From Phycisphaerae bacterium (GTDB lineage Bacteria; Planctomycetota; Phycisphaerae; UBA1845), in contig CAXXGO010000006.1 of the NCBI GenBank assembly GCA_963666835.2, positions 2,304,001 to 2,368,000 on the forward strand: a stretch of DNA of 64,000 nt, read 5' to 3'. Both the position numbers and the translations under genes were made by a program. Under the pieces are notes generated by a model that worked only from the letters and a program-made list of their open reading frames with translations, had not been told where the DNA came from and made no database searches. Below, piece by piece: positions 18,577 to 36,468 of this stretch. Position 1 is the stretch's first letter. Each line of letters begins with the position of its first letter.

Positions 18577-18771
18577 CGGAGTGACACTAGCATAAGCACG
18601 CGAGGCTAAGCCTGCAGATCGTATCGCTGCCGGTTCTGTTTGGGTTGCGCAGAGGCTTGGCCGGCGGGTGAGCCGCAGCATGGTGGATTCGGCTTGCGTT
18701 CTGGCGCTGGTTGGCTCCGCGGATGGCGTGCTGGGTGTTCGGGCCGAAGCGACCGGGTTGGGTCGATTGAC

Positions 18772-19854
18772 ATGGGATATGGGATGTACATCACGCTGGT
18801 GATCGCAGCGGCGCTGGTCGTATGCCTTGGCACAGGTTGGTGGCGTGTGGGGTTCACGCCCTTTGCGATTCCCGCCCGTAAGATGACCGTCGAGCGGCTG
18901 GGACTTTGTGTCGCCGGACCGGAGGACGCGAAGCGGGTGAATGGGATTCTGGCGAGTTTCGCGGGCGGTTTCAATGCCATGATCGCGGCACGACGAATGA
19001 AGGCCGTGCGAGCCCATTGCGAGTCGATCGGTCCGCTGTATCGCTCGTTTGCGGAAGAGGGTATGGCGATGGGCTACACCCTCCGCCGCCTTTTCCGTTA
19101 CGATCCGGCCTCCTTTGAATCGCAGATTATCGAACAAGGCCCCGGTTTCCGATACCTCTACTACGTCGGCTTGGGCTTCTGGTCGGGGATCCGGAACCAC
19201 TCCGGGCAGCGTTTGACGGGCATTACGCAGGGGTTGGATCCGCTTCATCGATTCTTGTGCTTCGATGGCTACGGGTTCAACTACGCGTTTTTTGAGTACG
19301 GCAAGGACCCCGAGGTGCTTCGCCGGCTGGACGGCCTGGACGGGTACGCGCGTCACGCGGCGTATCAAGGGGTCGGGCGGGCATTCTGGTTCCTCTTCTC
19401 GGGCGACCCCGAGCGGCTTATCGAGCACGCCGCGCGGTTCGGGGAATATTCCGGAGATATTGCGGCCGGCGTCGGATTGGCGTCGGTGTTTGTCAATCCC
19501 GATCGGTTGGACACCGCCCGGGATCTGGCTAACAAGATGCCGCAAGAGTGGCACGATGACTTCCATCTGGGAATGTGTTTCGGGCTCAAAGCCCGTTCGA
19601 TTAATGATCCGGACGAGTATGCGCGAAATCTGGGGCTGCTGGATGCCGGAGGGCGTGAGGCGGTAACGGCTTCGATTCGAGAGTGTGATCGGGTCGAGGC
19701 GGCGGTTCGGGGAGAGATGGGCGAGGATGGATACCGGCGTTGGCGCGAGCAGGTAACGGCATGGATGGCTTCGAATGTTTCCTATCCGTTGACTGGAGTC
19801 GCGACGACTTCGCCGTCGGCATCGGGCCTGCCGACCGCAGTCGAAACGGCATAG
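18772..19854 (+). CDS. DUF1702 family protein (enediyne UnbL-like) with N-terminal TM
   Basis: FAEEGMAMG, YYVGLG, DGYGF..AFF, YQGVGRAFWF and GVGLA motifs. Confidence 0.75.
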   Translation: MGYGMYITLVIAAALVVCLGTGWWRVGFTPFAIPARKMTVERLGLCVAGPEDAKRVNGILASFAGGFNAMIAARRMKAVRAHCESIGPLYRSFAEEGMAMGYTLRRLFRYDPASFESQIIEQGPGFRYLYYVGLGFWSGIRNHSGQRLTGITQGLDPLHRFLCFDGYGFNYAFFEYGKDPEVLRRLDGLDGYARHAAYQGVGRAFWFLFSGDPERLIEHAARFGEYSGDIAAGVGLASVFVNPDRLDTARDLANKMPQEWHDDFHLGMCFGLKARSINDPDEYARNLGLLDAGGREAVTASIRECDRVEAAVRGEMGEDGYRRWREQVTAWMASNVSYPLTGVATTSPSASGLPTAVETA

Positions 19855-19866
19855 AGGAGGAGCGCA

Positions 19867-20115
19867 ATGAAAGGTTATGAGGCTGCCAAAGACGAGATTC
19901 TCGAGTGGATTAGCGAGGCGATTCAGGTTCCGGTTGCGGAGATTGACCTGGATAAACCGCTCACGGACATCGGTCTCGACTCGCTCGATGCCGTGCACAT
20001 GATCGCCACAATCGAGTCCATCATTCAGAAGGAACTGCCCGAGGACATCATTCAGCGCGTAAGCTGCCTTAACGACATGCTCGATATGATGCGGGAGAAG
20101 ATGGCTGCCGCCTGA
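19867..20115 (+). CDS. Acyl carrier protein
   Basis: 82 aa, acidic, GLDSL phosphopantetheine site; GAGGAG RBS. Confidence 0.9.
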   Translation: MKGYEAAKDEILEWISEAIQVPVAEIDLDKPLTDIGLDSLDAVHMIATIESIIQKELPEDIIQRVSCLNDMLDMMREKMAAA

Positions 20116-20157
20116 GTTCGGTTCCAACGTGATCCGCAAGGTCGAGCGAGGAGTCGT

Positions 20158-21342
20158 ATGGCTGAAGACGTCGTCATTACCGGTCTGGGGATAGTCTCTT
20201 CCTTGGGCTGCGGGGAGCAGCGCTTCTGGGATGCGCTCTATCACGGCCGGTCCGGGGCCTCGCCGGTTGATCTTATGGATACGTCCGATCTGTCACGGAC
20301 TATCGCGTGCCAGGTACGTGACCCTATAGACGTCGAAGGGGATATGGGCAGAGCCGCCCGTCTTTCCGTTTCCGCCGCCCGCCAGGCGGTGGCTTCCGCC
20401 GGAATCGCTTCGGCCGACCTGGCGGGCAGGCACGTGGTTACGACCATCGGCACGACGATGGGTGAGACGGAGTTCATCGAAGATCGTCTTACTTCACCGA
20501 ACGCAGACTGGCTCTCGCCTCAGCACACACAGCGGATTCTTCACGGCCGGCCCGGCTCGATTGCCGAGCATGTGCGGACCGACCTTCGAATCCACGGCCC
20601 GGCCGCCGATCTGTATGGGGCGTGCGCGGCCGGCAATATGGCGATCCAATCCGCCCGACGCCGGCTGCTGGCCGGTGAAGGAGATTTTGCCCTCGCCGGC
20701 GGGGCTGATGGTTTCAGTCGATTGGCCTTCATCGGTTTCATGCGTCTGCGCGTGATGGCGGCAGAGGTTTGCCGGCCTTTCGACGAACAACGTGACGGTT
20801 TGCTCGTCGGCGAAGGGGCGGCGGTGTTCGTGTTGGAGCGAGAGTCGTCGGCGCGGGCTCGCGGAGCGCCGATCAGAGCGCGAGTTGTAGGGGGGGCGGT
20901 CACGTGTGAGGACTATCACCCGACTCGCCCGCACCCCGAGGGCGATGGGTTGAGCCGGTCGACCACCGCGGCGTTGCGCGACGCCGGGATTGCTCCCGAA
21001 GACGTGGACTATGTCTGTGCTCACGGTACGGGAACGCCGCACAACGACGCCATCGAGGTGAAGGTGATGCAGAGTTGCTTCCCACGCGGCGTGGCCTTCA
21101 GCTCGATCAAGGCGCTGACCGGGCACCCGATGGGGGCGGCCGCGGCTATGGAGGCGGCGTGTTGCGCGCTCAGCCTCGAGGCTCAGACCCTCATCCCGAC
21201 CTGGCACTTGGAGAACACGCTGCAACCCTGCATGCTGGACGCGATTCAAGGGGCGCCGCGCGCGGCGCGTGTGCGCTACGTGGTCAACAACTCCGCCGGG
21301 TTCGGTGGTTACAACAGCAGCATTGTCTTGGCGGCGGCGTAG
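20158..21342 (+). CDS. Beta-ketoacyl-ACP synthase (FabF-like, KS1)
   Basis: VVITGLG, GACAAG (Cys), AHGTGT, KALTGH, GFGG. Confidence 0.9.
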   Translation: MAEDVVITGLGIVSSLGCGEQRFWDALYHGRSGASPVDLMDTSDLSRTIACQVRDPIDVEGDMGRAARLSVSAARQAVASAGIASADLAGRHVVTTIGTTMGETEFIEDRLTSPNADWLSPQHTQRILHGRPGSIAEHVRTDLRIHGPAADLYGACAAGNMAIQSARRRLLAGEGDFALAGGADGFSRLAFIGFMRLRVMAAEVCRPFDEQRDGLLVGEGAAVFVLERESSARARGAPIRARVVGGAVTCEDYHPTRPHPEGDGLSRSTTAALRDAGIAPEDVDYVCAHGTGTPHNDAIEVKVMQSCFPRGVAFSSIKALTGHPMGAAAAMEAACCALSLEAQTLIPTWHLENTLQPCMLDAIQGAPRAARVRYVVNNSAGFGGYNSSIVLAAA

Positions 21343-21442
21343 TAGCCCTTCGAGTAAGCAGGACGCCGCGGCCGGTGGTTTCGCCGGGTTTCTCGGGCCA
21401 GGCTCTGGGCACGCCTACGTTCCCTGGCTATAAAGTCAGTCT

Positions 21443-22711
21443 ATGGACTCGTACCCAAGACGTGTAGTGGTTACCGGGGTCGGGCCGGTGACTTCGATCG
21501 GCACCGGTTGTGATGACCTGTGGGCGTCCCTCGACGCCGGGCGTTCGAACGTTCAGACTCGCATGCTTCCGTCGGACGTCGCTTGCGGGGCGGAGTTGCC
21601 GATTGCCGCGATGCCCGCGGTTGAGGATGTGCCGGGCCTTGCCCGTCACGTCGATTTCCTGACCGGGCAAGACTGCGCACCTTATCGCGAATTGGCGTAT
21701 GCACTTCTGGCCATCGAGCTTGCCCTGGATGATGCGGGGCTCGATCCGGGGGACAATGGCAAGCGCGTGGGGGCGGTGCAGGTCTTTGAAGCGCCCGGCG
21801 TGGAGGGAACGGTGAGCCATCTGTTCCGGCTCATGTCGATGCCGCCGCCGCCCGGAGCGCCGCCGAAGCTGTACGACCATCTGGCCTCCTACTTCTACAG
21901 CATGCAGCCGTTTCATTTCGTCCATTTAATGGGTAAAGCGTTTGGGCTGCACGGTTTTTCAACGAGTGTGCACAATGCGTGTTCATCCGGGTTGTTTGCG
22001 ATGGAAATAGCCGCCCAGCAGATTCGCGCGGGTAACGCCGACGCCATGATCGTCGTCGGCGGGGAGGCATTTGAAACCGCCGTTCGCCTGGAGTGGTTCC
22101 GCCGGCTGGAGATGTACGCTTCGGATACGTGCATGCGCCCGTTCGATGCCGAGTCTTGTGGGTTCTACGTGGGGGAGGGGGCCGGGGCCATTGTGCTGGA
22201 AGCGGAGGAACTCGCCGCCCGGCGCGGGGCGAAGCCGTACGCCGCCTACCTTGGCGGGGCTCATGCCCAGCAAGCGTGGAAGCAGACGATCCCCGACGTT
22301 CGGGCGTTGAGGCTCCGCGATGTCATCACCGAGGCATTAACCCGAGCTTCGGTCTCGCCCGCGGATCTGGACCTGATTGTGCCGCACGGAGCCGGGACGA
22401 TGCTGTGTGATGGGTATGAAGCTTCATGCCTGGCCGGGGCACTTGGCGACGCCCAGACCTCGGCAGTGGCTACCGTGTTCAAGCCGAACCTGGGTCACAT
22501 GCTGGCGGCCAGCGGGATTACCGAGACCATTTGTGCTATGCTGGCCATGAAGCACGGTCGCGTGCCCGCCACCCTCGGCTCCCGCGCCGACCGGGTGAAG
22601 CTGGCCGTGCCCCTGGTGACCGAATCCGTGACCCACCCCATACGCTTTATTCTCAAAATGTCGACCGGCTTCACCGGCCACGATGCGGCGGGTGTTCTTG
22701 GTGAGGTATGA
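21443..22711 (+). CDS. Beta-ketoacyl-ACP synthase (divergent, KS2)
   Basis: VVVTGVG, NACSSG, GEGAG, PHGAGT, KPNLGH. Confidence 0.85.
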   Translation: MDSYPRRVVVTGVGPVTSIGTGCDDLWASLDAGRSNVQTRMLPSDVACGAELPIAAMPAVEDVPGLARHVDFLTGQDCAPYRELAYALLAIELALDDAGLDPGDNGKRVGAVQVFEAPGVEGTVSHLFRLMSMPPPPGAPPKLYDHLASYFYSMQPFHFVHLMGKAFGLHGFSTSVHNACSSGLFAMEIAAQQIRAGNADAMIVVGGEAFETAVRLEWFRRLEMYASDTCMRPFDAESCGFYVGEGAGAIVLEAEELAARRGAKPYAAYLGGAHAQQAWKQTIPDVRALRLRDVITEALTRASVSPADLDLIVPHGAGTMLCDGYEASCLAGALGDAQTSAVATVFKPNLGHMLAASGITETICAMLAMKHGRVPATLGSRADRVKLAVPLVTESVTHPIRFILKMSTGFTGHDAAGVLGEV

Positions 22712-23249
22712 TCCTCCTTCGGTGCGGCCCCTCCCTTGGCCAATCCACGCCGATTCGTCGACCCCCTGCGGCCACTCCCTGACGGTCGGCGGTCCAACAA
22801 GTTTCCTCATGACACCGATCTGGCACCACCCGTAGGGCAGGTCGAGGTACGAGACCTGCCGCAACGGCTGTCACCACCCGTAGGGCAGGTCGAGGTACGA
22901 GACCTGCCGCAATAACGCGCATCGCGCGAAGACTATGGCAGGTCTCGTACCTCGACCATGCCCTACAACCTGCCGTTAGTACGGTGAGCGTAAGCGACCC
23001 GCCCCGGGCCAATGCGCGGCCACTCGTCGACCGGCTACAGCCACTCCCTGACCGTGGGTGGGCCAGTAAGTCCATCCATGACACCGACCTGGCACCACCC
23101 GTAGGGCAAATCGAAGCACGAGGCCTGCCGCAATAATGCGCATCGCGCGAAGACTATGGCAGGTCTCGTGCCTCGACCATGCCCCGCGAGATCGTCGCGT
23201 GACGCGCGCTGTTGTGGCAAGTTTCGTACGTTGACCGTGTCGTAAGCGA

Positions 23250-23515
23250 AGCCCCTTGGGGCGGCAGGTCCTTTAGCCCCACGGCGTAAGCCTGGGGAAA
23301 CCGTGAGAACGCTTCGCGCCAAGCCCCCTCGGGGGCGGCAGAGGGCATCGAGATTCGAATCGGACACCGGTAATTCAACATCGTAGGGAAGCACGTTGGC
23401 GACCGCCGGGAGCATTTCGATCATCGAAGTGCCGCCCCTGGGGGCTTGGGTTGACGTGTGACGCGATCCCGCGGCTTACGCCGCGGGCTTGGAAGAGCTG
23501 CCGCCCTGACGGGCT
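23250..23515. repeat. Composite inverted-repeat (MITE/REP-like) element
   Basis: Ends agcccc..ggggcggcag / ctgccgccc..gggct with mirrored internal hairpins. Confidence 0.65.
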
Positions 23516-23718
23516 GGTCCCGCGAGCCACGTGGGTGGCACATATTCGTGCGACTCACACCATTGCGCCCTTGGTAGCAGGTCTCGTGCCTCGACCGTGC
23601 CCTACAATCTGCGCGAGTATTCATGATTGAAGGCTCCTACCCTCCTCGCCACCGCGCGGGAATGCGCTGCCGTGCGAGAATACGCCGCCGTGTGGGAGAA
23701 TGCGCTCCCGCGCCCAAA

Positions 23719-23932
23719 TACGCCGAAGGCGTTGCGCCCCTAAGCCCAGGGTTGCCGCGAAGCGGCTACCCTGGGATCACGATCACATTGAAGATCAACC
23801 CCAACGGGGTTGCGTCGGTGTTCAACCCACTTCGGGGTTGGTGCGGAAGAGGGCCCGGTGACCCAGGGTGGCACTGAAGCGGCTACGCCGCTTCGTTTAC
23901 CCTGGGCTTTGCTGTTTAACGCCTTCGGCGTA
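23719..23932. mobile_element. MITE-like non-autonomous element with 15-bp terminal inverted repeats
   Basis: tacgccgaaggcgtt / aacgccttcggcgta perfect IR; inner aagcccagggt / accctgggctt; partial copy at 12581-12676. Confidence 0.65.
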
Positions 23933-24340
23933 CGTTCGGAAAAAGCGTCCCGCGCGAGAACCCGGCGCCACCCGTAGCCCGTAGGGCAGGTCGAGGCACG
24001 AGACCTGCCGCAATGGTGCCCATCGCGCGAAGACTCAGCCCCTTCCTTACGGTGCGTGGGCCGGCAAGTTGACCCATGCCGCCGACCTGGCACCACCCGT
24101 AGGGCAGGTCGAGGTACGAGACCTGCCGCAATGGCGCGCGTCGCGCGAAGACTATGGCAGGTCTCGTGCCTCGACCGTGCCCTACAGCCTGCGCGGGCAT
24201 TCTTGATTGGGGAACCCGCAGGTAAGTCCATTGAACTGCGGCCAGAGAGAGAGTACCATTCAAAGGTGAGGCGGCGAACGATATGGAAACCACGAGATGG
24301 TACGCCTCGGTATGCCGTTTGGTCGATGCGGAGGGACACG

Positions 24341-24751
24341 ATGTCGGAATCGCAGACTGAGCCGCGCGTCTGCTGCCCGTCGTGCAGCTTCTCGCTGACG
24401 CAGGAGGCGCAACGGGATTGCGTGTGCGATAACTGTGGCACAGCGCTGGACGCGGAGTATCTGCGGTGTAGACGAGAGGAGCTGATTACCAAGGACGCCC
24501 ACGATCGACGCGTGTTGGCTTGCGAGCGGACTGCCGCCGTGGTCGGTGCAATCATGTTGGCGTCGGGCGCGGCAATGGTCGCCAAGTATGCCCCACTTAT
24601 GATGGTCAGCGGAAGAGCCTCCGGGGTATTCTTGATCGGCACTCTGATCGCCGTTGGCTGGCGCTGGCACAATCGTGATCCGATGTGGCCGGTGCTGGCG
24701 CCACTCGGGTTGTTCTGGTTTCTGTTCGGCTTGTTTTGCGCAGCGTGCTGA
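24341..24751 (+). CDS. Small Zn-ribbon + TM membrane protein
   Basis: CPSC...CDNCG then 3 TM; GGAGG RBS before ATG 24341. Confidence 0.6.
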   Translation: MSESQTEPRVCCPSCSFSLTQEAQRDCVCDNCGTALDAEYLRCRREELITKDAHDRRVLACERTAAVVGAIMLASGAAMVAKYAPLMMVSGRASGVFLIGTLIAVGWRWHNRDPMWPVLAPLGLFWFLFGLFCAAC

Positions 24752-25155
24752 AGTCGGCTATCCCGGATTGTCTATGACGTTCGCACAAATGCGCGTAACT
24801 TACTGTGGCCTCACCCATGTGGGTGACACCACTGAAACACAGCGCGCTTCCACGCCAGGGACAAGCCCTGGAGCTACACTTGGATCACGGCCTCTTGTTC
24901 GTTTGTGCGAGTAGTCAGCACCAAGGCGATGGGGACTGTGTTGCTGGAATTAGTCGACTCGGAGCAGATGTTCGTGACGCCTGGGCATCGGCTCTAGGCC
25001 GTGTTGCCGGCCGGGACGTGTAGCGGGCTCAGCAACACAAGGGGGACCTCCCGGCCGATGATTCTGTCAGGGTCTCTCCCGTGGTCGGTAATCCGCACGT
25101 CCGCACGTCCGCAGGTCGCGGAAGCCGGATGGCCGGTTCCCTGGCTTGCGTCCTG

Positions 25156-25164
25156 TGGTATAAT
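25156..25164 (+). promoter_or_regulatory. Extended -10 promoter for the RAPP leader / heme operon
   Basis: TGGTATAAT ending 32 nt upstream of ATG 25197. Confidence 0.6.
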
Positions 25165-25196
25165 CTCGGGAGAGAAGCTGTCAGTTTCGGTGGGCC

Positions 25197-25727
25197 ATGC
25201 GTAACAAGAGCAACAACGATCATGAGGGTCGTGCCGGGGTGTTCAGTCGCCTGTTCTGGGGACTGATGATCCTGGCGCATGCTCCGGGTCTGATTGCCGC
25301 GGGGCGTGCCGGGCTTATGAACGGGTTCGGGGTGGAGCTACTCAGCGGGTCCGTCCTGCTGGTTGCCTCCATGGTGTTCTTCGTTCTGAAGATCCGGGGC
25401 GTTCCCTGGCTGCGGCTGCAAACCAATCGCCGGTCTGTTATTGCGGTTTGCCTGGTGGTCATGCTGATCCACCTGGAGTGCATCAGGCCCGGCCTGCGCG
25501 GCGAATTGCTATCCCAATGCACCGTTGTTCTGGTGACGACTTCGCTGGTTTTCGCCGTGCCGCGGGGGGTGCGAAGGGTCCGCTCCTCGTTGGCAAGCAG
25601 GCATTCTTCTTCAAGCTTGCGGAGTTTCGATGACCGCCCGACCGGCGTCATCTGGCTCGACTCATACCGCCCACGTTGTTGGGTCCTCGTTCTTTCCCTG
25701 CTGCGGCTGCGCGCGCCTCCTGCGTAG
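25197..25727 (+). CDS. 4-TM membrane protein ending LRAPPA; putative ribosome-arrest leader
   Basis: Four hydrophobic helices, His28 and His92 in TM1 and TM3, C-terminal RAPP immediately before the last residue, directly upstream of the heme operon. Confidence 0.65.
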   Translation: MRNKSNNDHEGRAGVFSRLFWGLMILAHAPGLIAAGRAGLMNGFGVELLSGSVLLVASMVFFVLKIRGVPWLRLQTNRRSVIAVCLVVMLIHLECIRPGLRGELLSQCTVVLVTTSLVFAVPRGVRRVRSSLASRHSSSSLRSFDDRPTGVIWLDSYRPRCWVLVLSLLRLRAPPA

Positions 25728-25891
25728 CCGACGAGGGCGTTCCGGTCCGGATTGCGTGGACTTGGGCAACGCCTCTCTCCGATTCGATTCGTTCTTGTCT
25801 TCCGACTGAGGTCTGGTTGTTAATAGCCGTAAGTGAGCCGGCACGCGGGTGCCGGAGGCTCCAAGCGGAGCCGTGGGAGGCATGGCATCAA

Positions 25892-28249
25892 ATGCTCTCG
25901 TTAAAACCGACCAGAGAATCCACCGGCGGGGGAGCCGGGGAATCGATCTCCACGTTATCGGCCACCAAGGGTGTGCTGCTCATCAACCTCGGGACTCCGG
26001 ACGCCCCCGATGTCGAATCGGTGCGCCGGTACCTGGCGGAGTTTCTGGGTGATCCCGAAGTGATCCAACTTCCGCGTGGGCTCAAGTGGCTCAATGGCCC
26101 GCTGGGGCGATTCATCGCCAGACGCCGGGCCCCTAAGTCCGCAAAGTCGTACGAGCAGATCTGGACCGAACGGGGCTCGCCCCTCGGTTCGATCAGCGCG
26201 GAACAGGCCGCGTCCCTGCAGTCGGCGATGCCCTCGGATTGGCAGGTCTTCCATGCCATGCGCTATGGGAAGCCGACGATCGCCGAGACACTCCGGCGGG
26301 TTGAGGATTCGGGGGTCGAGGAACTCGTCGTTATCCCGATGTATCCTCAGTTCAGCGGACCGACTACCGGCACGGCGCTGCGGGCGCTATACGGCAGCCT
26401 CAAGAGAGGCGGCCACCGTCTTAACGTAGCGACGCGTAACTCGTGGTACGACGACGGCGGATACCTGCACGCGCAGGCCAAGCTGATCGCCGATTACGCT
26501 CGACTGCACGGGTTGAGCCCGGAAGATACTCATCTCGTGTTCTCTGCCCATGGGCTGCCGGTGTCCTACGTGGAACGCGGCGACCCGTATCCGGATCACG
26601 TGAACCGCACGGTGGAGTTGGTCGCACAACGCCTCGGCTGGCCCGAAGAGCGCCGGACCTTGGCCTTCCAAAGCCGCGTGGGTCCGACGGCATGGCTGAC
26701 GCCGAATACCGAAGACGTGCTCAGGGAGTTGGGCGATCGCGGGGAACGGCGGGTTCTGGTTTGCTCGGTCAGTTTCACTACCGATTGCCTCGAGACTCTC
26801 GAGGAGATCGATCTGAAGTACCGAGAGATGTTCGAGCGTGACGGCCGGGAGATGTTCCTCTGTCCCGCGTTGAACACCAGCCGCGATTTCATCGCGGCCC
26901 TCAAGAACCTGGCGCTTCGGGGTCCTCAGGCGGTCAAGTCGTGGGGAGCGCGAATGCACCCGTTGTTGAAACCGGCGGCACAGCCCCTTTCGGCTTCTGA
27001 GCATGTCGACTCGCTCGTGTTTGTCGGCGTATCGATGAAGAGCCGGGTCGGTGACGGCAGCGGTCCGGAGCTGATTCACGAAGACGAGCGCGGTCTCGAG
27101 AAACTCAAGAAACCACACGATGAGATCCCCGGGATTCTCCAGGGAATCTGCGGTCGCCGCGGCGCGCGGGAGGCGTTCGTGTGGAACACCTGCTATCGGT
27201 TCGAGTTCTACGGCTGGGAGAGTGATTCCGCGGCCGGGCCCGACGATTGCGTGGTGGCCCGCGTCTGTCAGCAAGTGTTCGCCGGCGACATTCCGGAGGA
27301 TGTCTCGGTGAACGTCCTTCGCGGTCGGGAGGCGTGGCATCATCTGGTGCGCACGGCGGCGGGCCTCAACAGCGGTCTGGCGGGGGATCATGACGTCGTC
27401 GAGCAGCTTCGCACTGCGCACAACCTTGCTCAGCGCGCGGGGACTGCGGGGGTGTTGACCGATCGTCTGGTCAGCGAGGTTACCGAGTTGGAGCGCCGCC
27501 TGCGCAGCGAGACTGCGTGGGGTCGGTTCGACCCCGGCTATTGCTACGCGGCCATGTCCCGGCTTTTGGAGTCAGATGGAATCGACCTTCGCGAGAGTCG
27601 CATACTGGTTGTCGGTGGCTCAACGACGTCGCGATCCGTGCTATCGGCGCTGATTGATCGGTTCGGTGTGCCGGAGCGGCAGTTGACGTTGGCCTATCGT
27701 GGCCACGGCGGCGGGCAGATCAAACTTCTGCGCAGGGCGATTCGCGGCGGACGGCGCCTGCGGGTGCAGTCGTACGGTGAGCCGCAATTGGTGCAGGCGG
27801 TGGCGGAGGCGGATGTGGTGATCTTCGGGATCGATCGCGACGAGCCGGTGCTCGATGCGGGGGCGATCCGGGAGATGCGTGATTTCGCGGATCGGCCTTT
27901 GTTTGTGGTAGACTTCAACACTTTCGGCTCGACCCGCGGATGGGAGGCGGTGTCGGGAGTAACCGTTGTTGATGCGAACCGGCTGGCACAGACGGTTGTA
28001 GATTATACGAACGCAATGTGGACGGACGCGGAGTTTGCCGGAGCTCTGCGGGAGGCAGAGGATTGGATCGCGGAGCACCTGCCGCCGTCTGTCGAAGTGG
28101 ACAAACGCCCGCCGGGCTGCCCCGGCAGTATGGAAGCCGCGGCCGACTCCGGATTGTTGGGGCCGCGGGAGCGTTGGCTACGGTGCGTGCAATGTGTCGG
28201 GAACCGTTCGGTCGACGAGCGAGTTTCGGTCAGGAGCGGAGTATCATGA
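25892..28249 (+). CDS. hemH: Ferrochelatase fused to a divergent glutamyl-tRNA reductase-like domain (HemH-HemA)
   Basis: N-half: GVLLINLGTP, AMRYG, PMYPQFS, FSAHGLP, FQSRVG, DCLETLEEI. C-half: NTCYRFE, HLVRTAAGLNS, Rossmann ILVVGG. No internal stop. Confidence 0.85.
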   Translation: MLSLKPTRESTGGGAGESISTLSATKGVLLINLGTPDAPDVESVRRYLAEFLGDPEVIQLPRGLKWLNGPLGRFIARRRAPKSAKSYEQIWTERGSPLGSISAEQAASLQSAMPSDWQVFHAMRYGKPTIAETLRRVEDSGVEELVVIPMYPQFSGPTTGTALRALYGSLKRGGHRLNVATRNSWYDDGGYLHAQAKLIADYARLHGLSPEDTHLVFSAHGLPVSYVERGDPYPDHVNRTVELVAQRLGWPEERRTLAFQSRVGPTAWLTPNTEDVLRELGDRGERRVLVCSVSFTTDCLETLEEIDLKYREMFERDGREMFLCPALNTSRDFIAALKNLALRGPQAVKSWGARMHPLLKPAAQPLSASEHVDSLVFVGVSMKSRVGDGSGPELIHEDERGLEKLKKPHDEIPGILQGICGRRGAREAFVWNTCYRFEFYGWESDSAAGPDDCVVARVCQQVFAGDIPEDVSVNVLRGREAWHHLVRTAAGLNSGLAGDHDVVEQLRTAHNLAQRAGTAGVLTDRLVSEVTELERRLRSETAWGRFDPGYCYAAMSRLLESDGIDLRESRILVVGGSTTSRSVLSALIDRFGVPERQLTLAYRGHGGGQIKLLRRAIRGGRRLRVQSYGEPQLVQAVAEADVVIFGIDRDEPVLDAGAIREMRDFADRPLFVVDFNTFGSTRGWEAVSGVTVVDANRLAQTVVDYTNAMWTDAEFAGALREAEDWIAEHLPPSVEVDKRPPGCPGSMEAAADSGLLGPRERWLRCVQCVGNRSVDERVSVRSGVS

Positions 28250-29667
28250 GCGCGAGTATTTCAGACGCAGACTTGGCGATTTTTCGCAGATATGCCGGGC
28301 TGTCGCTGCCTCGTCATGTGTCGTACCCGATGCCAACTTGGTGGCAGGATGTTGATGAGACCGAGGCGGCGGCGCTGTACGAGGTGAGCCGGGGAGAACC
28401 GGCCAATGACCTGTCCCTGTACGTGCACGTTCCGTTTTGCGAGAAGCTGTGCAAGTTCTGCGCTTGTACCCGAGTGGTTCTACCCAAGGATAAGTCCGGA
28501 GCGACCGAGCGGGTCGAGGCTTATCTGGCGGCGATGGAACGAGAAATCGCGTGCCGGGCGGATCTGGCGGGTGATGGGCGCGCGTTGCGGCAAGTCCACT
28601 GGGGCGGAGGAAGCCCGCTGTATCTGACCTCAGAGCAGATGAGCAGGATTCAGAATGCCATCAGCAAGGCATTCTCATTGGCTCCGGATGCCGAGATCGC
28701 CGTCGAGATCGATCCGCGTCAGGCTACTCGGGAGCGAATCGAAGGGCTCCGCCGCTTGGGTTTCAACCGTATCTCGCTGGGCGTGCAGGATTTCAACGAG
28801 CAAGTCCAGGAACACGTGCATCGCGTCCAGCCTTTCGAGTTGGTTCGCGACACGGTCGAGGCCTGCCGCGCGGCGGGCTTCGCAAGTGTCAACTTCGATC
28901 TGATCTACGGCCTTCCGTACCAGACCGTCGAGACGGTGCGCGATGCCGTTGAACGATCCATCGGCTTGTCCCCGGATCGTGTCGCCTACTACCACTATGC
29001 CCAGATTCCCGAGAAGATCGCCACGCAACGGGGGATGGACTATACGAAACTCCCCGATAGCGACACCAAGCTGGAGATGTTCCTTTCCGGCGTGAGTCAG
29101 TTCGAGGAGGCCGGGTACGAGTTCGTCGGGCTGGACCATCTGGCTAAGCCGGACGAATCTCTGGCCCGGGCTCGTGCGGAAGGCACCCTTCAGCGCAACT
29201 TCCAGGGTATGACGACTGGGGGCGGTTTGGATCTCATCGCTGTTGGAGCGTCATCCATCAGTCATCTGGCGGGCGTGGGGTTTCTTCAGAACACCCGGGA
29301 TATTGCGGCATACGTGGAGAGCCTGGAGAACGGGAAAGGGCCGATTCACCGGGGGAAGCGTTTCACTCGTGATGATCTGATCCGTCAGGCCGTGCTCGCC
29401 GACCTCTACTGCCTGACTGAGGTTCGCGCTGATCGTATCGAGCGGCAGTTCGGCATTGTCTTCGGCGAATACTTCGCTCGGGAGCTCAAGATTCTAGAAG
29501 AGCTGGAGAAGGATGGGCTGATCGTGCGTGGCGCGGACGAGACGATTCGGGTAACTTACCCTCTCGGACGGGTGCTCCTTCGCAATATTGCGGCCGTGTT
29601 CGATGCGTATCTTGCTCCGGATGCATACCGCGCCGGAGAGCGCGAGTGCTTTTCCGCCAACGCCTAG
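28246..29667 (+). CDS. hemN: Oxygen-independent coproporphyrinogen III dehydrogenase (radical SAM)
   Basis: PRHVSYP, LYVHVPFCEKLCKFC, HWGGGSP, RNFQG; ATGA overlap with upstream gene. Confidence 0.93.
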   Translation: MSASISDADLAIFRRYAGLSLPRHVSYPMPTWWQDVDETEAAALYEVSRGEPANDLSLYVHVPFCEKLCKFCACTRVVLPKDKSGATERVEAYLAAMEREIACRADLAGDGRALRQVHWGGGSPLYLTSEQMSRIQNAISKAFSLAPDAEIAVEIDPRQATRERIEGLRRLGFNRISLGVQDFNEQVQEHVHRVQPFELVRDTVEACRAAGFASVNFDLIYGLPYQTVETVRDAVERSIGLSPDRVAYYHYAQIPEKIATQRGMDYTKLPDSDTKLEMFLSGVSQFEEAGYEFVGLDHLAKPDESLARARAEGTLQRNFQGMTTGGGLDLIAVGASSISHLAGVGFLQNTRDIAAYVESLENGKGPIHRGKRFTRDDLIRQAVLADLYCLTEVRADRIERQFGIVFGEYFARELKILEELEKDGLIVRGADETIRVTYPLGRVLLRNIAAVFDAYLAPDAYRAGERECFSANA

Positions 29668-29785
29668 TGCTGCGCCACACCCAGGGTCTCGGGTGTGCCT
29701 GCTCGTGAGCAGTGCATGGACGGGACGAGGTGTGGATTGCCCCCGGACCTTTACACATGGCCAAACGCCGGTAGAAGCTTCCAAC

Positions 29786-30820
29786 ATGAAGAACGACCTT
29801 CTGCTCCGAGCAGCGCGGCGCGAGCGTACCGTGCGAACGCCCGTCTGGTTGATGCGCCAAGCCGGCCGGTTCGATCCGCGCTACGGCGAGATTCGTCGGA
29901 AGTACGACTTGCCGCTTGAAGAGCTCTTTCGAAGACCTGATGCCGCGGCGGAGATCTCACTACTTCCCCGGCGATTGGGCGTTGACGCCATAATCTTCTT
30001 CCAGGATATCCTCACGCCGCTGGCGCCGATGGGGGCGGAGTTCGTGTTTCGACCCGGTCCCGTATTGGAAACGCCCTTGCGCGAGCCAAGTGATGTCGAA
30101 GCCCTCCGGCCGTACGATGTTGATTCGCATCTCGGTTTCGTTACCGAGACGCTCAAACTGGTTGCCGGGGCTTTGGATGGAGAGTTGCCGTTGCTCGGTT
30201 TTGCGGGAGCCCCGCTGACTCTGGCGTTCTTCCTCATCGAGGGACGTAGCCCTGGTGTAGAAGCCGATCGTGCATTGGGTATGATGCGATCGGACCCGAG
30301 CACCTTCCGCAGGCTGCTTCGTTTGTTGACGGACATGACCGTTGACTATCTGGCGTTGCAGATTGAAGCTGGGGTTGATGCTGTTCAGTTGTTTGAATCA
30401 TTGGCCGATCGGGTCTCGCCGGAGGAGTATTCTGAGTTTGCCCTGCCCTGCCAGGTTGAGATATTCTCAAGACTGGGGTCGCGGGTTCCGCGTATCCTGT
30501 TTGCGAAGGACCTTCCGTCGGTGGACCCGATGGCCGCCTCGGGAGCGGATGTGTTGAGCATAGGGTCCCGGTTGGACTTGGCTGAGGCCGGAAGACGGTA
30601 TGGTGATCGATTCGCACTTCAAGGCAATGTCGATAACTACCTTCTCAGGGACGGTAGTCTGGAGGAGATCGCCGCAGCGGTGCGAGCCTGCGTCGAAGCC
30701 GGTGGGAATACGGGCCACATCCTCAACCTCGGACATGGGATTCTCAAAGATACGCCGTTCGAGAATGTGCGTCAGTTCATCGAAACTGCTAGAATGGATG
30801 CCAACGACTCTGGGGGTTAA
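29786..30820 (+). CDS. hemE: Uroporphyrinogen decarboxylase
   Basis: PVWLMRQAGR, GFAGAP, LQGNVD, NLGHG. Confidence 0.95.
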   Translation: MKNDLLLRAARRERTVRTPVWLMRQAGRFDPRYGEIRRKYDLPLEELFRRPDAAAEISLLPRRLGVDAIIFFQDILTPLAPMGAEFVFRPGPVLETPLREPSDVEALRPYDVDSHLGFVTETLKLVAGALDGELPLLGFAGAPLTLAFFLIEGRSPGVEADRALGMMRSDPSTFRRLLRLLTDMTVDYLALQIEAGVDAVQLFESLADRVSPEEYSEFALPCQVEIFSRLGSRVPRILFAKDLPSVDPMAASGADVLSIGSRLDLAEAGRRYGDRFALQGNVDNYLLRDGSLEEIAAAVRACVEAGGNTGHILNLGHGILKDTPFENVRQFIETARMDANDSGG

Positions 30821-30843
30821 CCGGTGCTAAGGGCGGAGAGGCT

Positions 30844-32276
30844 ATGACGGACACCTTGCGAGACGTCATCGTCGTTGGCGGTGGGATCAGCGGTCTGACC
30901 ACGGCATGGTACCTGAAGCACGCCGACGTCGATGTCTGCCTGCTCGAGGCCGGCGATTATGCCGGCGGGGTCACGCGCACGGAGCGGCGCGACGGCTTCC
31001 TGCTGGAGAAAGGCCCGTTCAACGTCATAGTCCGAGATCCGGATTTCGAGACGTTGCTCGAGGGGGTCAGTGACGAGACTGACGTTGTCTCGGCGAGTCG
31101 GGCAGCCCGGGCGCGGTATCTGTACCGGAAAGGGCGCCTCTCGGCGGTGCCGACCAATCCGGTGGCGCTGGCGACCACGCCGCTGTTGAGCTTCGGGGCG
31201 AAATGCCGACTTGTGCGTGGATTGTTGGGCAGCCGGCGTTCGACTCGGATTGAGGAGACCATCGAACAGGTTGGGGCGCGACGCTTCGGGACCGAAGTAT
31301 CCGACACGATGATCAGTGCGGTCATCTCGGGGATATTCGCGGGGGACATTCGGCAGTTGAGTCTCAAAGCGTGTTTCCCGAGTGTCGCCCGGATCGACGG
31401 ACGAGCCCGAAGTCTGGTCGCCTACGGCCTGACTTCCCCATTCCGCCGCAAACGCTCTTCTCCGGAATCTCAACCCAGGCGGTGGCGGGGACTGGTGAGT
31501 CTTAAGGGTGGTCTGGGGACTTGACCCAGGCGCTGGCCCGCACGCTTGGTGACGATTGCATGACCGGTTGCCGGATCGACGAGATCCACGCGACCGATCA
31601 GGGCTATCAAGTAGTGTACAGCGATCGTGAAGGGGCGGTCGGTTCGGCGTACTGCCGCCGGTTGGTTTTGGGAACGGCCGCGTCGGAAGCCGCGCGCTTG
31701 CTCGGTCCGGTCGTGCCGGATGCTGCGGAACAGCTCATGACGATCGAGAGCGTTCCGATGCTCGTGTTGAACCTCGGTTTCAGGCGGGCGGACATCGGTC
31801 ATCCTCTTAAGGGTTTCGGTTTCCTGGTTCCGCGGAACGAGCCGGAGTACCCCTTGATGGGCATTCTCTGGGCCAACAGCATTTTCCCACACCATGCTCC
31901 GCCGGACCACTGCCTGATCCGCGTGTTTATTGGCGGCAGCCGTGATCCGAATGCCATCGAACGCAGCGATGACGAGTTGCTGGCGTCGGCGATGGATGCC
32001 TCGCGCGGGTTGCTGTCCATCTCCGGCGATCCGGTATTGACCGATATCTGCAGGTGGCCGGCTGCGATTCCCCAGTATGGGCTCGGTTACCTCGACAAGA
32101 TTGCGCGGCTTAATGCGGTGGTCGCTGCCCAACCGAACTTGTATCTGATTGGCAACTACATGGAAGGCGTGTCCCTGAATGATTGTGTTCGTTGTGCCAC
32201 GCGCGCGGCAAACGAGCTCATTCGCACGACGGAGCCGATGTACGCATCGTCGTCCCGGGCACTGGCGGCATCGTAG
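30844..32276 (+). pseudogene. hemY: Protoporphyrinogen/coproporphyrinogen oxidase (HemY-type), split by a 1-nt frameshift at ~31515-31522
   Basis: ORF 30844-31524 (VGGGISGL FAD motif, EKGP) plus ORF 31521-32276 (GFGFLVP, AIPQY, GNY..GVSLNDC); one extra base joins them into ~477 aa. Confidence 0.8.
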
Positions 32277-32286
32277 GGCGAACATC

Positions 32287-33309
32287 ATGGATGGATCACA
32301 AGAGTGGTTGCCGCCGGTTCGGCGGCCCCGCCGACTTCGCCGCAGCGAGACGATCCGCCGCCTGGTGCGTGAGACGCGCCTGACGCCGGATCGGTTGATT
32401 CTCCCGCAGTTCGTGATCGAAGGTACGGACCGCACCGAGCCGATCGCAGCCATGCCGGGGCGAGCCCGGCTTACGATTGACCGAACTCTGGCTGAGTGTG
32501 AAGAGGCCGCAATGCTCGGCGTTCGGTCGTTTGCTCTTTTTCCGGCGACCGATCCGGCGCTGAAGACCCCCGAGGCTAAGGAGGCACTCAATCTGGACAA
32601 CTTGCTTTGTCGGGCGGTGCGGGCGTTGAAGGAGGCGATGCCGGAAAGCTGCGTGATTACCGACATCGCCCTGGATCCCTATTCAAGCCTCGGGCACGAT
32701 GGTCTGATCAAAGATGGTGTGGTGGTCAACGATGAGACCGTAGAGGTCCTGGCCAAGATGGCCGTGGTGCAAGCTGGCGCCGGGGCGGACCTCGTAGCCC
32801 CGTCGGATATGATGGACGGGCGCGTGGATGCCATCAGAACGGCACTTGATGAGGCGGGTCATCAGGATGTCGGAATCCTCAGTTACACCGCCAAGTACGC
32901 ATCCAGCTTCTACGGCCCGTTTCGAGAGGCTCTGGACTCGGCTCCGGTTGACGCGCCGGACGTACCCAAGGACAAGAAGACCTACCAAATGGACCCGGCC
33001 AACGCCCGCGAAGCGCTGATCGAAGCTGCGCTCGACGAGGCGGAGGGGGCCGATGTTCTGATGGTCAAGCCGGCACTGCCCTATCTCGACATCATTGCTC
33101 GGCTCCGGGCGGTCACCGAGATGCCGATCGCGGCCTACCACGTCAGCGGCGAGTATGCGATGATCAAGGCCGCGGCCGAGCACGGGTGGTTGGATGAGCG
33201 AGCCTGCATGACGGAATCGCTGATGGCGATTGCCCGGGCGGGGGCGGACATGATTCTCACTTATGCCGCTTTGAGCTACGCCCGCTGGTGGCGCGATTCG
33301 TGGGCTTGA
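32287..33309 (+). CDS. hemB: Porphobilinogen synthase (Asp-rich, Zn-independent type)
   Basis: RPRRLR, DIALDPYSSLGHDG, APSDMMDGR, YQMD, MVKP, YHVSGEY. Confidence 0.95.
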   Translation: MDGSQEWLPPVRRPRRLRRSETIRRLVRETRLTPDRLILPQFVIEGTDRTEPIAAMPGRARLTIDRTLAECEEAAMLGVRSFALFPATDPALKTPEAKEALNLDNLLCRAVRALKEAMPESCVITDIALDPYSSLGHDGLIKDGVVVNDETVEVLAKMAVVQAGAGADLVAPSDMMDGRVDAIRTALDEAGHQDVGILSYTAKYASSFYGPFREALDSAPVDAPDVPKDKKTYQMDPANAREALIEAALDEAEGADVLMVKPALPYLDIIARLRAVTEMPIAAYHVSGEYAMIKAAAEHGWLDERACMTESLMAIARAGADMILTYAALSYARWWRDSWA

Positions 33310-33950
33310 TCGGCGATTGCGGCTGCCAGCGATTCGAAGCTTCGCTGCGGGGCTTCGACCCACGGCTCAATGCCCAGTTTCCGCAGGGCCGCACTGGTCG
33401 GCGGTCCGATGCTGGCGAAGGGTAGGTCGACCCTGCCGATGGCTTCGACCGCCGACGCGCTGGCTACTGCTGCCACGTCGACGCGATCGGTGATGCTCCG
33501 ATCGAAGGATCTAGCAACGGTTTCGTAGAGCACCGGGCTGACCAAGTTGACCCCGGCCCACGCCCGCGGAGGCGGCACCCGTGCCGATCGGGGATAACAG
33601 ACCGTTCCATGTGTTGCGATTGCCTTGAGTTCCGCAAACAGACTCTCCCCGGTCCCCTCGCGGCTGACCAGCTCGACCCGAAACCCCCGATCCTTGGCCG
33701 CCCTCCGAGAGGGCTCTGCAACCACGGCCAATCGCGGCACCCGAGCGGGCGCCGCTGCCACGGCCGCGATAGCGTAGGGGCTCGTCAATACGAGCCAATC
33801 ATCCGGACCGAGTCTGCTAATGGCCTCGGCGGCATCGTCGAGCACGCGGCGAGAAAGGACCGGCTCAAGAACGGCTTCCAGCCCGCAAGCCCGCAGGGCG
33901 GATGTCAGGGGCCCGTTATTGGCTTCGTCGCGTGTTACCCAGACTTTCAC
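33276..33950 (-). CDS. hemD: Uroporphyrinogen-III synthase
   Basis: VWVTR, WLVLTSP, LYET, ASASAV, SIGPPT; coupled to hemC. Confidence 0.85.
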   Translation of the reverse strand: MKVWVTRDEANNGPLTSALRACGLEAVLEPVLSRRVLDDAAEAISRLGPDDWLVLTSPYAIAAVAAAPARVPRLAVVAEPSRRAAKDRGFRVELVSREGTGESLFAELKAIATHGTVCYPRSARVPPPRAWAGVNLVSPVLYETVARSFDRSITDRVDVAAVASASAVEAIGRVDLPFASIGPPTSAALRKLGIEPWVEAPQRSFESLAAAIADQAHESRHQRA

Positions 33951-34837
33951 GAGGTTTCCTTCAGCTCACTGAGCAGCCGTTCGGCCAGGCGTCGGCCCAC
34001 CGCCGGAGCGTCGTCGCCGGTCTCCACCCCCTCTGCCAAGCGGTTTCCGTCGTCGCTAAAAAGCTGGGCATGTAAGGAAACGCCGCGGGAGTCTATCGTC
34101 GCCAGAGATCCTACGGGGACATGGCAACCGGCGTTGATTCCGCCCAGGAAGCTCCGCTCCGCTGCCACTGTGCGCCGGGACGGCTCATCGTCAAGAGCCG
34201 CGAGCAGCTCGACCGCGCGGTCCCCGTCGCGAGCCTGGATAGCCAAGGCACCCTGGGCCGGCGCGGGAACGAACCGGTCCGTCGGCAGATCGACTACGTT
34301 CGGCGGGTTGAGACCCAGGCGCCTGACCCCGGCGGCAGCGAGCACCACCCCGTCGAGCCCTTCCCGTTCCATCTTGGCAATACGGGTCGGCACGTTGCCG
34401 CGAATCGGCACGGTCTCCACGTCGCCCAAACGTCTGAACTGGGCGATACGGCGGGGGCTGCTCGTGCCCAGCCGAAAACCGGCTCGCAGGTTGTCTAGAT
34501 CCACCGGCTCCGCAGTAACCAGAATGTCGTGTACGACCTCGCGCGCTGGCACGGCCGCAATCACCAAGCCGGGCGTTTCTGCGGTTTGAAGATCCTTATA
34601 ACTATGAACCGCGAAGTCGATCTGATCACCCGCCAGCGCTTGCTCGATTGCCCCGACGAACCCCCCGACCGGCCAGTCGGCGTCGAACAACTGCTGGGTG
34701 GCGGTGTCCCCGTGGGTCTTGATGATTACTTCTTCGATGGTGAGCGAAGGATGCGCTTCGCGCAGCCGATCACACACCCAGCGCGTCTGCCAGATTGCCA
34801 GGTCGCTTCCCCGAGTACCCACCCGCAACGTGGTCAC
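33947..34837 (-). CDS. hemC: Hydroxymethylbilane synthase
   Basis: GTRGSDLA, AVHSYKD, GTSSPRR, RGNVPTR, PAPAQGAL, GCHVP. Confidence 0.93.
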   Translation of the reverse strand: MTTLRVGTRGSDLAIWQTRWVCDRLREAHPSLTIEEVIIKTHGDTATQQLFDADWPVGGFVGAIEQALAGDQIDFAVHSYKDLQTAETPGLVIAAVPAREVVHDILVTAEPVDLDNLRAGFRLGTSSPRRIAQFRRLGDVETVPIRGNVPTRIAKMEREGLDGVVLAAAGVRRLGLNPPNVVDLPTDRFVPAPAQGALAIQARDGDRAVELLAALDDEPSRRTVAAERSFLGGINAGCHVPVGSLATIDSRGVSLHAQLFSDDGNRLAEGVETGDDAPAVGRRLAERLLSELKETS

Positions 34838-36132
34838 GACGCGATACTCCTGAACGACTCTTCCGCCGCAGCGATGATCTGAGCGATCGACTCGTCATCA
34901 TGGGCCGATGAAACGAACATCGCCTCATACCCCGACGGCGGTAGCCACACTCCTCGATCCAGCATGGCGTGAAAGAGCTTCGCGTAGAGGTCGTGATTGC
35001 AGGCCTGCGCGTCGTCAAAGTTGTCCACGCGCTTGTTAGACAACGCCAGGCCGAACATCCCGCCGCAGTAACCGGTTTGCACCGGAACCCCCGACACCGA
35101 GCGCAACCCGTCCGTTAGGCGACGGACCTTCGCAGTCAAAGACTCATAGAATCCCTCGCCGTGGCAAATTCGCAGCGTGGCGGCACCGGCGGCCATGCCG
35201 ATCGGGTTCCCGCTCAGAGTGCCGGCCTGGTACATCGGCCCTAACGGGCTGACCTTCTCCATAAGGCTCTTCGGACCGCCGTATGCGGCCACGGGCATCC
35301 CGCCGCCGATGACCTTGCCAAGGCACGTCAGGTCGGGGCGAACTCCGCATATATTCTGGTAACCGCCCCACGCAGTGCGAAAACCGGTCATGACCTCGTC
35401 GAAGACCAGCAGGCTCCCGTGTTTGTCACAGAGGGAACGCAGGCCCTCGAGGAAGCCCGCCATCGGTAGAACGAGCCCCATGTTGCCTGCGATCGGCTCC
35501 ACCAGGATGGCCGCGATGTCGTCGGCGTGGGCGGCCATGAGCTGCTCGACGACTTCGAGGTTATTGTATGGGGCGAGCATTGTGGACTCGGCTATCCCCG
35601 CCGGTACTCCGGCCGAATCGGGGACGCCGAACGTGGCCGCCCCGGAGCCCGCCGCCACCAGTAGAGAGTCGACGTGTCCGTGGTAGCAGCCGAGGAACTT
35701 GACCACGCGCGTCCGCTTGGTCGCTGCCCGGGCCAGGCGGATTGCGCTCATGGTCGCTTCGGTGCCGCTGTTCACGAATCGAACGAGATCTACTGAGGCA
35801 AACGCCCCGGCAATTATCTCGGCCAGCTCGGCCTCGGCCGGGCAGCAGGCTCCGAAGCTGAGCCCCTTACCGGCGGCGACGCGAACGGCGTCGACGACTT
35901 CGGGGTGAGCGTGACCGACAATGGCCGGGCCCCACGTACCCACCAGATCCACATAACGGTTGCCGTCGACATCGAAGATGTACGGTCCTTCCGCCCGTTC
36001 GACGAAGACCGGCTTGCCGCCTACGGCTCGAAACGCCCGGACGGGGCTGTTCACCCCGCCCACCAAGGTCGCACATGCCCGGTCAAAGAGCGCGGCCGAG
36101 CGGCCCCGCGACGACTTTGTTTCTACGCTCAT
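34834..36132 (-). CDS. hemL: Glutamate-1-semialdehyde 2,1-aminomutase
   Basis: GGVNSPVRAF, NSGTEA, YHGH, FDEVMTGFR, GKVIGGG, YQAGTLSGNP. Confidence 0.95.
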   Translation of the reverse strand: MSVETKSSRGRSAALFDRACATLVGGVNSPVRAFRAVGGKPVFVERAEGPYIFDVDGNRYVDLVGTWGPAIVGHAHPEVVDAVRVAAGKGLSFGACCPAEAELAEIIAGAFASVDLVRFVNSGTEATMSAIRLARAATKRTRVVKFLGCYHGHVDSLLVAAGSGAATFGVPDSAGVPAGIAESTMLAPYNNLEVVEQLMAAHADDIAAILVEPIAGNMGLVLPMAGFLEGLRSLCDKHGSLLVFDEVMTGFRTAWGGYQNICGVRPDLTCLGKVIGGGMPVAAYGGPKSLMEKVSPLGPMYQAGTLSGNPIGMAAGAATLRICHGEGFYESLTAKVRRLTDGLRSVSGVPVQTGYCGGMFGLALSNKRVDNFDDAQACNHDLYAKLFHAMLDRGVWLPPSGYEAMFVSSAHDDESIAQIIAAAEESFRSIAS

Positions 36133-36450: not shown

Positions 36451-36468
36451 CAATCTTGGGAGTACTAA

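Follow-up and report, generated by a model that had tools for sequence, protein, structure and literature searches.

The results of this analysis suggest that a small membrane protein encoded ahead of a heme biosynthesis operon in a Phycisphaerae bacterium is likely a heme sensor that acts while it is still being synthesised. The stretch of DNA analysed (hereafter the window) comprises 64,000 nt of contig CAXXGO010000006.1 (assembly GCA_963666835.2, positions 2,304,001 to 2,368,000), and the open reading frame (ORF) in question, called the leader below, occupies 25197..25727 on the plus strand. Based on its sequence and that of its homologues, we consider, with a probability of about 0.6, that it is an arrest leader resembling CruR, which carries a new membrane sensor with two His residues (bis-His) and would act as a heme-dependent gate ahead of the hem operon. 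The heme-arrest interpretation offered in a preliminary description of this DNA is partly supported.

Sequence and predicted topology of the leader

The leader, which was delineated from an ORF list and from homology and profile searches and belongs to an unnamed Phycisphaerae family, encodes 176 amino acids (aa) with four hydrophobic helices. It ends in LRLRAPPA followed by the stop codon, 164 nt before the in-frame ATG (25892) of a hemH-hemA fusion gene; coordinates and sequence are as the preliminary description gave them. Alignment and hydropathy place the first transmembrane segment (TM1) at about aa 17-37 (25245..25307), with Trp21, the invariant His28 (codon 25278-80) and Pro30, TM2 at about aa 46-66 (25332..25394), with a conserved FFxLK at its end, and TM3 at about aa 79-96 (25431..25484), with the invariant His92 (codon 25470-72). 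TM4, placed by hydropathy and spacing at about aa 103-122 (25503..25562), is poorly conserved in sequence and is followed by an Arg-rich linker of conserved length.

Lys/Arg clusters occur ahead of TM1, between TM2 and TM3, and after TM4, and the predicted topology has four membrane segments with both termini inside. His28 lies 10 residues after Arg18 and His92 lies 13 after Arg79, both Arg residues being cytoplasmic by this topology, so that the two His are predicted, from charge only, to sit at similar depth on co-oriented helices, an arrangement that membrane proteins of the bis-His cytochrome b type also have. The preliminary description had placed both near the ends of their helices on the same side of the membrane; the co-orientation stands as a charge-based prediction, but His28 is not at the end of TM1, being in its middle-to-outer half ahead of the conserved Pro30.

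The RAPP codons (R172-A173-P174-P175) are located at 25710..25721. In the predicted stall, P174 (25716-18) would occupy the P site and P175 (25719-21) the A site; these are the codons already singled out (25716-25721), and ApdA/ApdP have this register at the same motif positions (PMC10951233; this and the other reports used for comparison, namely PMC9426467, PMC12992588, PMC5801465, PMC10991733 and the CutF preprint, bioRxiv 10.1101/2025.02.05.636593, are drawn on in part). The distance from TM4 to RAPP is about 49 aa in the window protein, close to the 50 proposed earlier, and the family medians from the TM4 end to the Arg are 48.5 and 46.

An AlphaFold model of the leader, with a predicted template modelling score (pTM) of only 0.50, has helices at residues 8-42, 46-67, 78-96 and 98-140 and matches hydropathy on the helices, not on packing. 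Foldseek with this model gave no match at E<=0.001, and its best VIA match (Z 7.8 over 68 residues) was to generic hairpins. A profile search of PDB sequences with the leader returned nothing, and the ESM Atlas returned three unnamed, possibly related clusters, two mostly from Planctomycetota and one from Acidobacteriota. When two copies of residues 12-127 were modelled together with heme, the score was 0.00, which is evidence neither for nor against. A coupling signal between His28 and His92 was rejected as an artefact of invariance, the coupling analysis on 141 sequences being too weak.

Distribution and conservation of the leader family

The first homology search yielded 15 homologues, in which His28, His92, R172, P174 and P175 were invariant. 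Profile searches located members in 39 of 301 class genomes and in 151 of 251 genomes of the order, and a phylum-wide search matched 4 of 401 genomes, three of these matches being real after a weak partial one (G088) was discarded. The named relatives of the leader are Phycisphaerae. The 141 loci analysed were the window, 40 regions from the class search, 99 from the order search (G113 is also in the class list) and one from the phylum search; 14 listed order matches (many on short contigs), one truncated class match and 20 unlisted matches were left out.

The preliminary description had proposed checking homologues for both His residues and for RAPP-like ends, and both are conserved. His28 and His92 were present together in all 141 homologues and Trp21 in 140, and the only other conserved Cys, Met, His, Asp, Glu or Tyr near the two His was Met24 (71/141). 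RxPP or HAPP ended 138 of the 141 leaders (RAPP 109, RGPP 12, RPPP 9, RSPP 5, HAPP 2, RDPP 1) and R[AG]PP ended 121, counts that are biased upward because the search profile included RAPP; as a counterweight, several class-search matches spanned the membrane part only and still ended in RxPP. One of the three ends without a motif is a contig end. Locus L047 (G141) holds a full-length member with both His and no RxPP end, possibly a decayed or frameshifted leader.

All four motif positions show synonymous codon variation across homologues, which indicates that the peptide, not the RNA, is conserved. The spacing from His92 to the motif Arg is 71-81 aa (standard deviation (SD) 2.0, n=44) in leaders before hem genes and 77-88 aa (SD 2.3, n=93) otherwise, and identity is 13% in the linker versus 33% in the membrane part. 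Since both His and the RxPP/HAPP end are conserved while codons vary, the conservation is more than chance, and the leader is a real, strongly conserved feature.

Among 51 members scanned, no Pfam family was common to the members, PF01578 (HemX/CcsA-like) had no match and PF11162 (DUF2946) had none at E<=0.05; the library did weakly flag another leader of the window genome. NCBIfam gave no match. No conserved CxxC was present, in that no column of the 141 aligned sequences had Cys above 30%.

Two genomic contexts of the leader

The gene following the leader was hemH(-hemA) at 44 loci, a secreted-protein cluster at 94 and unclassified at three, so that co-oriented contexts of the two kinds make up 138 of 141; L143 was placed with the secreted clusters on the basis of its prepilin gene. 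The suggestion that homologues lie upstream of hem genes therefore holds for 44 loci and fails for the 94 that precede secreted-protein clusters. These clusters encode signal-peptide proteins of the families famA, famB and famC with PEP-CTERM or dockerin-like tails, and a prepilin-type, DUF1559-like gene nearly always follows them. Neither sec nor yidC was the next gene at any of the 138 classified loci.

In a quick IQ-TREE tree, 42 of the 44 hem-linked leaders fell on one branch (SH-aLRT 93) that spans several families. A search of 40 hem-operon genomes found famA in none and famB in four, and the secreted cluster was absent from 36 of 45 hem-operon genomes; the window genome also lacks it.

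The famA model is a beta-barrel with its best match to NspA (Z 8.8, root-mean-square deviation 3.1, 150 aligned residues), compared with Z 4.8 for HtaA and 4.0 for HphA, and the famA alignment has a conserved Tyr. A profile search of PDB sequences with famB returned dockerin tails only, and an ESM Atlas search with famA returned nothing usable. Unannotated small membrane proteins were seen behind the prepilin gene (L141:550-1164, L046:5938-6435, L100:427-1164; 4-7 loci each), and it is possible that they are inner-membrane partners of the cluster.

Heme genes in genomes carrying the leader

Genomes whose fetched leaders head only a secreted cluster (secreted-only genomes, n=86) comprised 51 of at least 91% completeness and a second batch of 35 that includes genomes down to 67% complete; related genomes are not independent in the co-occurrence counts that follow. 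A full ferrochelatase was found in none of the 86 (one weak partial match), which is weak evidence alone because many genomes of the order do without it: it is also missing from 19 of the 24 in which no leader was detected. HemB was absent from 28 of the 51 better genomes. When HemB regions were fetched for 8 of the other 23, four were annotated as siroheme clusters (sulfite reductase, cobA-hemD), three resembled these in gene layout, and one was of uncertain type. AhbA/B were found in none of 30 secreted-only genomes tested and a full ChdC in none of 51. All 51 had COX1-family heme-copper oxidases. Many near-complete Phycisphaerae of the order, including the single-contig G099, G048 and G789, have heme-copper oxidases and neither HemB nor ferrochelatase, and heme auxotrophy is apparently widespread in this group.

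Heme oxygenase was present in 44 of 51 secreted-only genomes versus 1 of 29 hem-operon genomes, the latter picked from 40 and mostly the more complete ones; within the window's own family the counts were 11 of 16 versus 0 of 22. The oxygenase gene lies immediately upstream of the leader at seven loci in three families (G148, G078, G718, G251, G812, G695, G190), and in G040 it is directly ahead of a leaderless famC-famB cluster. In a Sumerlaeia record without leader (L207:3834-7403), a prepilin gene, famB, a major facilitator superfamily (MFS) transporter gene and the heme oxygenase gene are consecutive, the oxygenase two genes behind famB, and the transporter is a candidate for heme import.

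The secreted-context loci support the heme idea, since their genomes lack the known heme-b routes, have heme enzymes and are enriched in heme oxygenase. Heme is the likeliest signal shared by the two contexts, given the lack of ferrochelatase alongside heme-copper oxidases and heme oxygenase and the adjacency of the oxygenase to leaders.

Intergenic region and output step

The 164-nt region between the leader and hemH-hemA (25728..25891, plus strand) is a candidate zone for Rho loading and termination. Gaps from leader to next gene have medians of 149 and 201 nt in the two contexts (heuristic starts), the range considered for the output step being 107-222 nt. In the 20 nt after the stop codon the C>G bias was 0.20 and 0.22 in the two contexts versus -0.03 in 1888 control genes, an imperfect control that includes genes with G-rich ribosome-binding sites close behind; just ahead of the stop, Pro codons contribute C. 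A rho gene is present in the genome.

A hairpin of 10 bp that spans the stop and the RAPP codons in the window was rejected as unconserved (mean z +0.33 and +0.11; z<-2 in 0/44 and 5/94). Folding of the whole intergenic region was unremarkable (z -0.98), no Rfam family was found in 25728..25891, and in 22500-37000 Rfam detected no riboswitch and only a tRNA. Rho attenuation is favoured by the gap length, the lack of a conserved hairpin, the excess of C over G about the stop codon and the existence of a rho gene, and the output step is probably of the CruR type. The translational control of heme synthesis by its end product, as originally envisaged, is likely the wrong step.

An extended -10 promoter-like element, TGGTATAAT, precedes the leader at 25156..25164 (plus strand), with two occurrences in the window against 0.22 expected and 25 in the genome. 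A -35/-10 scan upstream of the leader found no promoter, and strong matches to the element were present upstream of 10 of 139 homologues, where chance would give about 4; the promoter read into this element earlier is thus plausible at the window locus but not conserved.

Comparison with known systems

The leader would work like CruR, and it is not a DUF2946 protein, not a Sec monitor by its context and not HemX. CruR (Bordetella Bp2923, DUF2946/PF11162; PMC9426467) is likewise the first ORF of its operon, with RAPP only a few residues short of its C-terminal end, keeps a constant spacing between ligand residues and RAPP (CxxC-RAPP, as here between the putative ligand His92 and RAPP) and is followed by a long gap (162 bp, versus 164 here and medians of 149 and 201); its downstream genes supply the sensed cofactor, as those of the leader would. 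In the CruR model, the stalled ribosome blocks Rho and the ligand frees the ribosome (PMC9426467). In contrast to CruR, the leader matches no DUF2946 and has no CxxC. Its membrane domain has four helices and carries two His, where the CruR chain is soluble and poorly structured, and its putative sensor is about 80 aa from RAPP as counted from His92 (about 48 from the last helix) versus 45; the leader would target heme synthesis or, probably, heme uptake instead of copper.

In CutF of Rhodobacter capsulatus (10.1101/2025.02.05.636593), as would be the case in the leader, a nascent chain with a proline-rich C-terminal stall motif senses its ligand across the membrane. It differs in that copper triggers the stalling, which opens a hairpin over the ribosome-binding site, whereas the leader has no conserved hairpin and its proposed logic is release by ligand. 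ApdA, ApdP, SecM and MifM have a C-terminal RAPP/RGPP core past membrane-targeting segments, with variable sequence just upstream (PMC10951233, PMC12992588), as the leader has; unlike in those systems, the genes downstream are not sec or yidC, and the invariant His pair suggests a ligand. RSPP and RDPP are arrest-permissive, and a RAPP motif by itself is insufficient for arrest (PMC12992588). HemX (PF01578; PMC5801465) is also a membrane protein, its gene neighbours hemA and it takes part in heme feedback, but it has eight helices, acts on the HemA protein level, occurs only with heme synthesis and has no reported arrest motif, whereas the leader has four helices and no PF01578 match and occurs in 28 genomes without HemB.

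At least four apparent family members are among the five 'ferrochelatase' rows listed in the RAPP upstream ORF catalogue of Fujiwara et al. 2025 (PMC12992588); one of them is P0004 and the other three were judged by eye. In this catalogue, DUF1559 genes are within the top 30 enriched downstream classes and ferrochelatase is not. The main text of that paper, as far as available, contains no heme, porphyrin or ferrochelatase term and does not describe the family, the His pair or the uptake link. The literature searched, from which subscription journals are largely absent, listed no paper in which an arrest peptide senses heme and none about famA/famB/famC clusters.

Proposed mechanism and alternative explanations

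The leader stands first ahead of the hem genes, has the charge pattern of a four-segment membrane protein, and combines an invariant His pair with a RAPP end at a fixed spacing. By analogy with ApdA/ApdP and CruR, the ribosome would stall at RAP-P, with TM1-4 already inserted into the membrane and the roughly 48 residues of the linker extending into the exit tunnel. When heme is scarce, the stalled ribosome would mask the C-rich zone at the stop codon, exclude Rho and allow the hem genes to be transcribed. Heme b bound between His28 and His92 could close the bundle, pull the tether and release the ribosome, after which Rho would terminate transcription within the 164-nt gap. Genome content suggests that relatives without a known heme-b route use the same leader on secreted proteins and a prepilin-type protein, and that these PEP-CTERM- or dockerin-tailed proteins and their prepilin-type partner likely import heme.

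Several observations weigh against this account. The context label needs four changes on the quick tree, only one of which is forced by strong branches; nine of the 45 hem-operon genomes also have the secreted cluster, five of them with both leader kinds. No heme-binding domain is annotated in the secreted proteins famA, famB and famC, the famA alignment contains no invariant His, and fold searches with famA gave generic 8-strand barrels only and no clear hemophore match. Heme oxygenase adjoins the leader in only 5 of the 44 secreted-only genomes that carry it, and FeoB lies ahead of one leaderless famC-famB cluster, which keeps iron in play. The upward bias of the motif count, the background lack of ferrochelatase in the order, the relatedness of the genomes and the imperfect control and Pro-codon contribution for the C>G bias belong with these points.

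Iron is at the centre of one alternative: the leader would still be a RAPP arrest leader, but the ligand of its His pair would be iron or some other metal ion, and both the cluster and heme oxygenase would function in obtaining iron. Known ligand-sensing RAPP leaders do sense metals (CruR, CutF and the His/Cys leaders in PMC12992588), and the FeoB gene, the liberation of iron by heme oxygenase and the position of ferrochelatase as the first regulated gene are in line with this. We regard it as unlikely, since no more than two ligands are conserved, a single stall logic would need heme synthesis to be induced by iron starvation, and the secreted clusters follow the loss of heme synthesis. Porphyrin iron takes two axial ligands, and a site with only two conserved ligands fits such a porphyrin better than a bare metal. 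Moreover, low heme should induce both synthesis and uptake, while low iron usually drives them in opposite ways. Heme is preferred over iron on these two grounds. It is also conceivable that the signal is related to heme and is not the heme level, i.e., another metalloporphyrin, a porphyrin intermediate, or a redox or gas-bound state of heme: sequence alone cannot assign a bis-His site to heme b, the operon has the oxygen-independent HemN, and nearly all tested carriers have heme-copper oxidases. Metal-free porphyrins take no axial His, however, and the hemH-hemA fusions in cobA/cobB neighbourhoods (G689, G763) have no leader; this is the least probable of the alternatives considered.

The two remaining explanations place the function elsewhere. 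The finished protein could be a membrane heme-handling factor, either a chaperone or a HemX-like brake on HemH-HemA, with RAPP limiting its own output only. Four helices with a conserved core (33% identity) are more than most leaders have, and the membrane protein HemX controls HemA abundance (PMC5801465). This is nevertheless quite unlikely, given that two thirds of the members precede non-hem genes, that 28 of 51 such genomes lack HemB, where HemX is never found without heme synthesis (PMC5801465, as far as covered), that none of 51 members matched PF01578, and that the leader is always first ahead of a long gap with its His-to-RAPP spacing fixed. A monitor of membrane insertion or secretion capacity of the SecM/MifM/ApdP type, with structural His, would suit a RAPP about 48 aa past the last helix, where insertion could provide the force for release, as well as the secreted proteins downstream at 94 of 141 loci and the further RAPP-ended membrane ORFs ahead of secreted proteins in the window genome. 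Such a monitor is very unlikely, as no sec or yidC gene is next at the 138 classified loci, HemH-HemA is cytoplasmic, and this reading leaves the invariant His pair within the membrane and the association with heme oxygenase unexplained.

The hem operon and other features of the window and its genome

The operon behind the leader, all on the plus strand, begins with the hemH-hemA fusion (25892..28249), in which ferrochelatase (PF00762, 2.9e-98) is joined to the N-terminal domain of glutamyl-tRNA reductase (PF05201, 1.6e-19). The fusion unites the last and first steps of heme synthesis and is the usual arrangement at hem-linked loci. Use of an out-of-frame ATG at 25882 is improbable, since GGAGG is only 1 nt ahead of it, and a frameshift that would move the hemH start to this ATG was rejected because the main contigs of three runs, one possibly from the source sample, have no indel there. 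Second hemH-hemA copies by cobA or cobB genes in G689 and G763 (L183, L184) have no leader. By domain scan, the fusion is followed by hemN (radical SAM, HemN_C; 28243..29667), hemE (URO-D; 29786..30820), a hemY-like flavin oxidase gene (30844..32276) and, as the last plus-strand gene, hemB (ALAD; 32287..33309). The hemY-like gene is in two frames in the window and a single ORF in several relatives; its split near 31514 is probably an assembly error, as the contigs of three of four public runs have one extra base there. A convergent hemL-hemC-hemD operon (33276..36132, minus strand) is separate and has no leader of this family upstream, the genome having one leader copy.

Dispersed GC-rich repeats of 53-147 nt, with inverted pairs among them, were observed upstream of the leader region (22769-24209). 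The second TGGTATAAT of the window, at 18568-76, heads a gene cluster within 18568-22711, which by eye we take to encode an acyl carrier protein and two ketosynthase-like proteins, divergent from a large membrane transporter gene.

Other RAPP-type leaders occur in the window genome. A His-rich, RAPP-ended leader with CxxC and a weak DUF2946 match (G000:C6:908480-911000; L216:990-3226) precedes a PEP-CTERM protein and a prepilin/DUF1559 gene, an architecture like that of the secreted clusters with a metal-type sensor. Two RAPP/RGPP-ended membrane ORFs (L217:999-1751 and L218:783-1628, G000:C6 near 1044000 and 759600) each precede an IPTL-CTERM secreted protein and weakly match the N-terminal domain of apolipoprotein N-acyltransferase, possibly forming a further leader family. 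An RGPP-ended ORF (L219:498-1157, G000:C6 near 2268500) is followed by several consecutive genes for secreted proteins, of which the first has DUF4114.

Implications

If the leader is a heme sensor, the range of arrest-peptide sensing, which covers metal ions and the force of secretion, would come to include an organic cofactor held within the membrane, and the leader would be a protein counterpart of a heme riboswitch. Bacterial heme synthesis would gain an end-product control distinct from HemA proteolysis and from control by HemX, as these are described in the reports consulted. The leader also bears on a question posed in PMC12992588, namely the source of the pulling force for RAPP leaders outside the Sec pathway. 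We tentatively propose, at not quite even odds, that in Phycisphaerae a nascent membrane bis-His bundle serves as a portable heme switch on the ribosome and marks an undescribed heme-uptake system of surface proteins, a prepilin-type partner and heme oxygenase in many aerobic, heme-auxotrophic Planctomycetes. This would give the planctomycete clusters of PEP-CTERM and prepilin/DUF1559-type proteins a testable role in heme capture, and it suggests that the substrate taken up by a downstream cluster can be read from the sensor domain of its RAPP leader.

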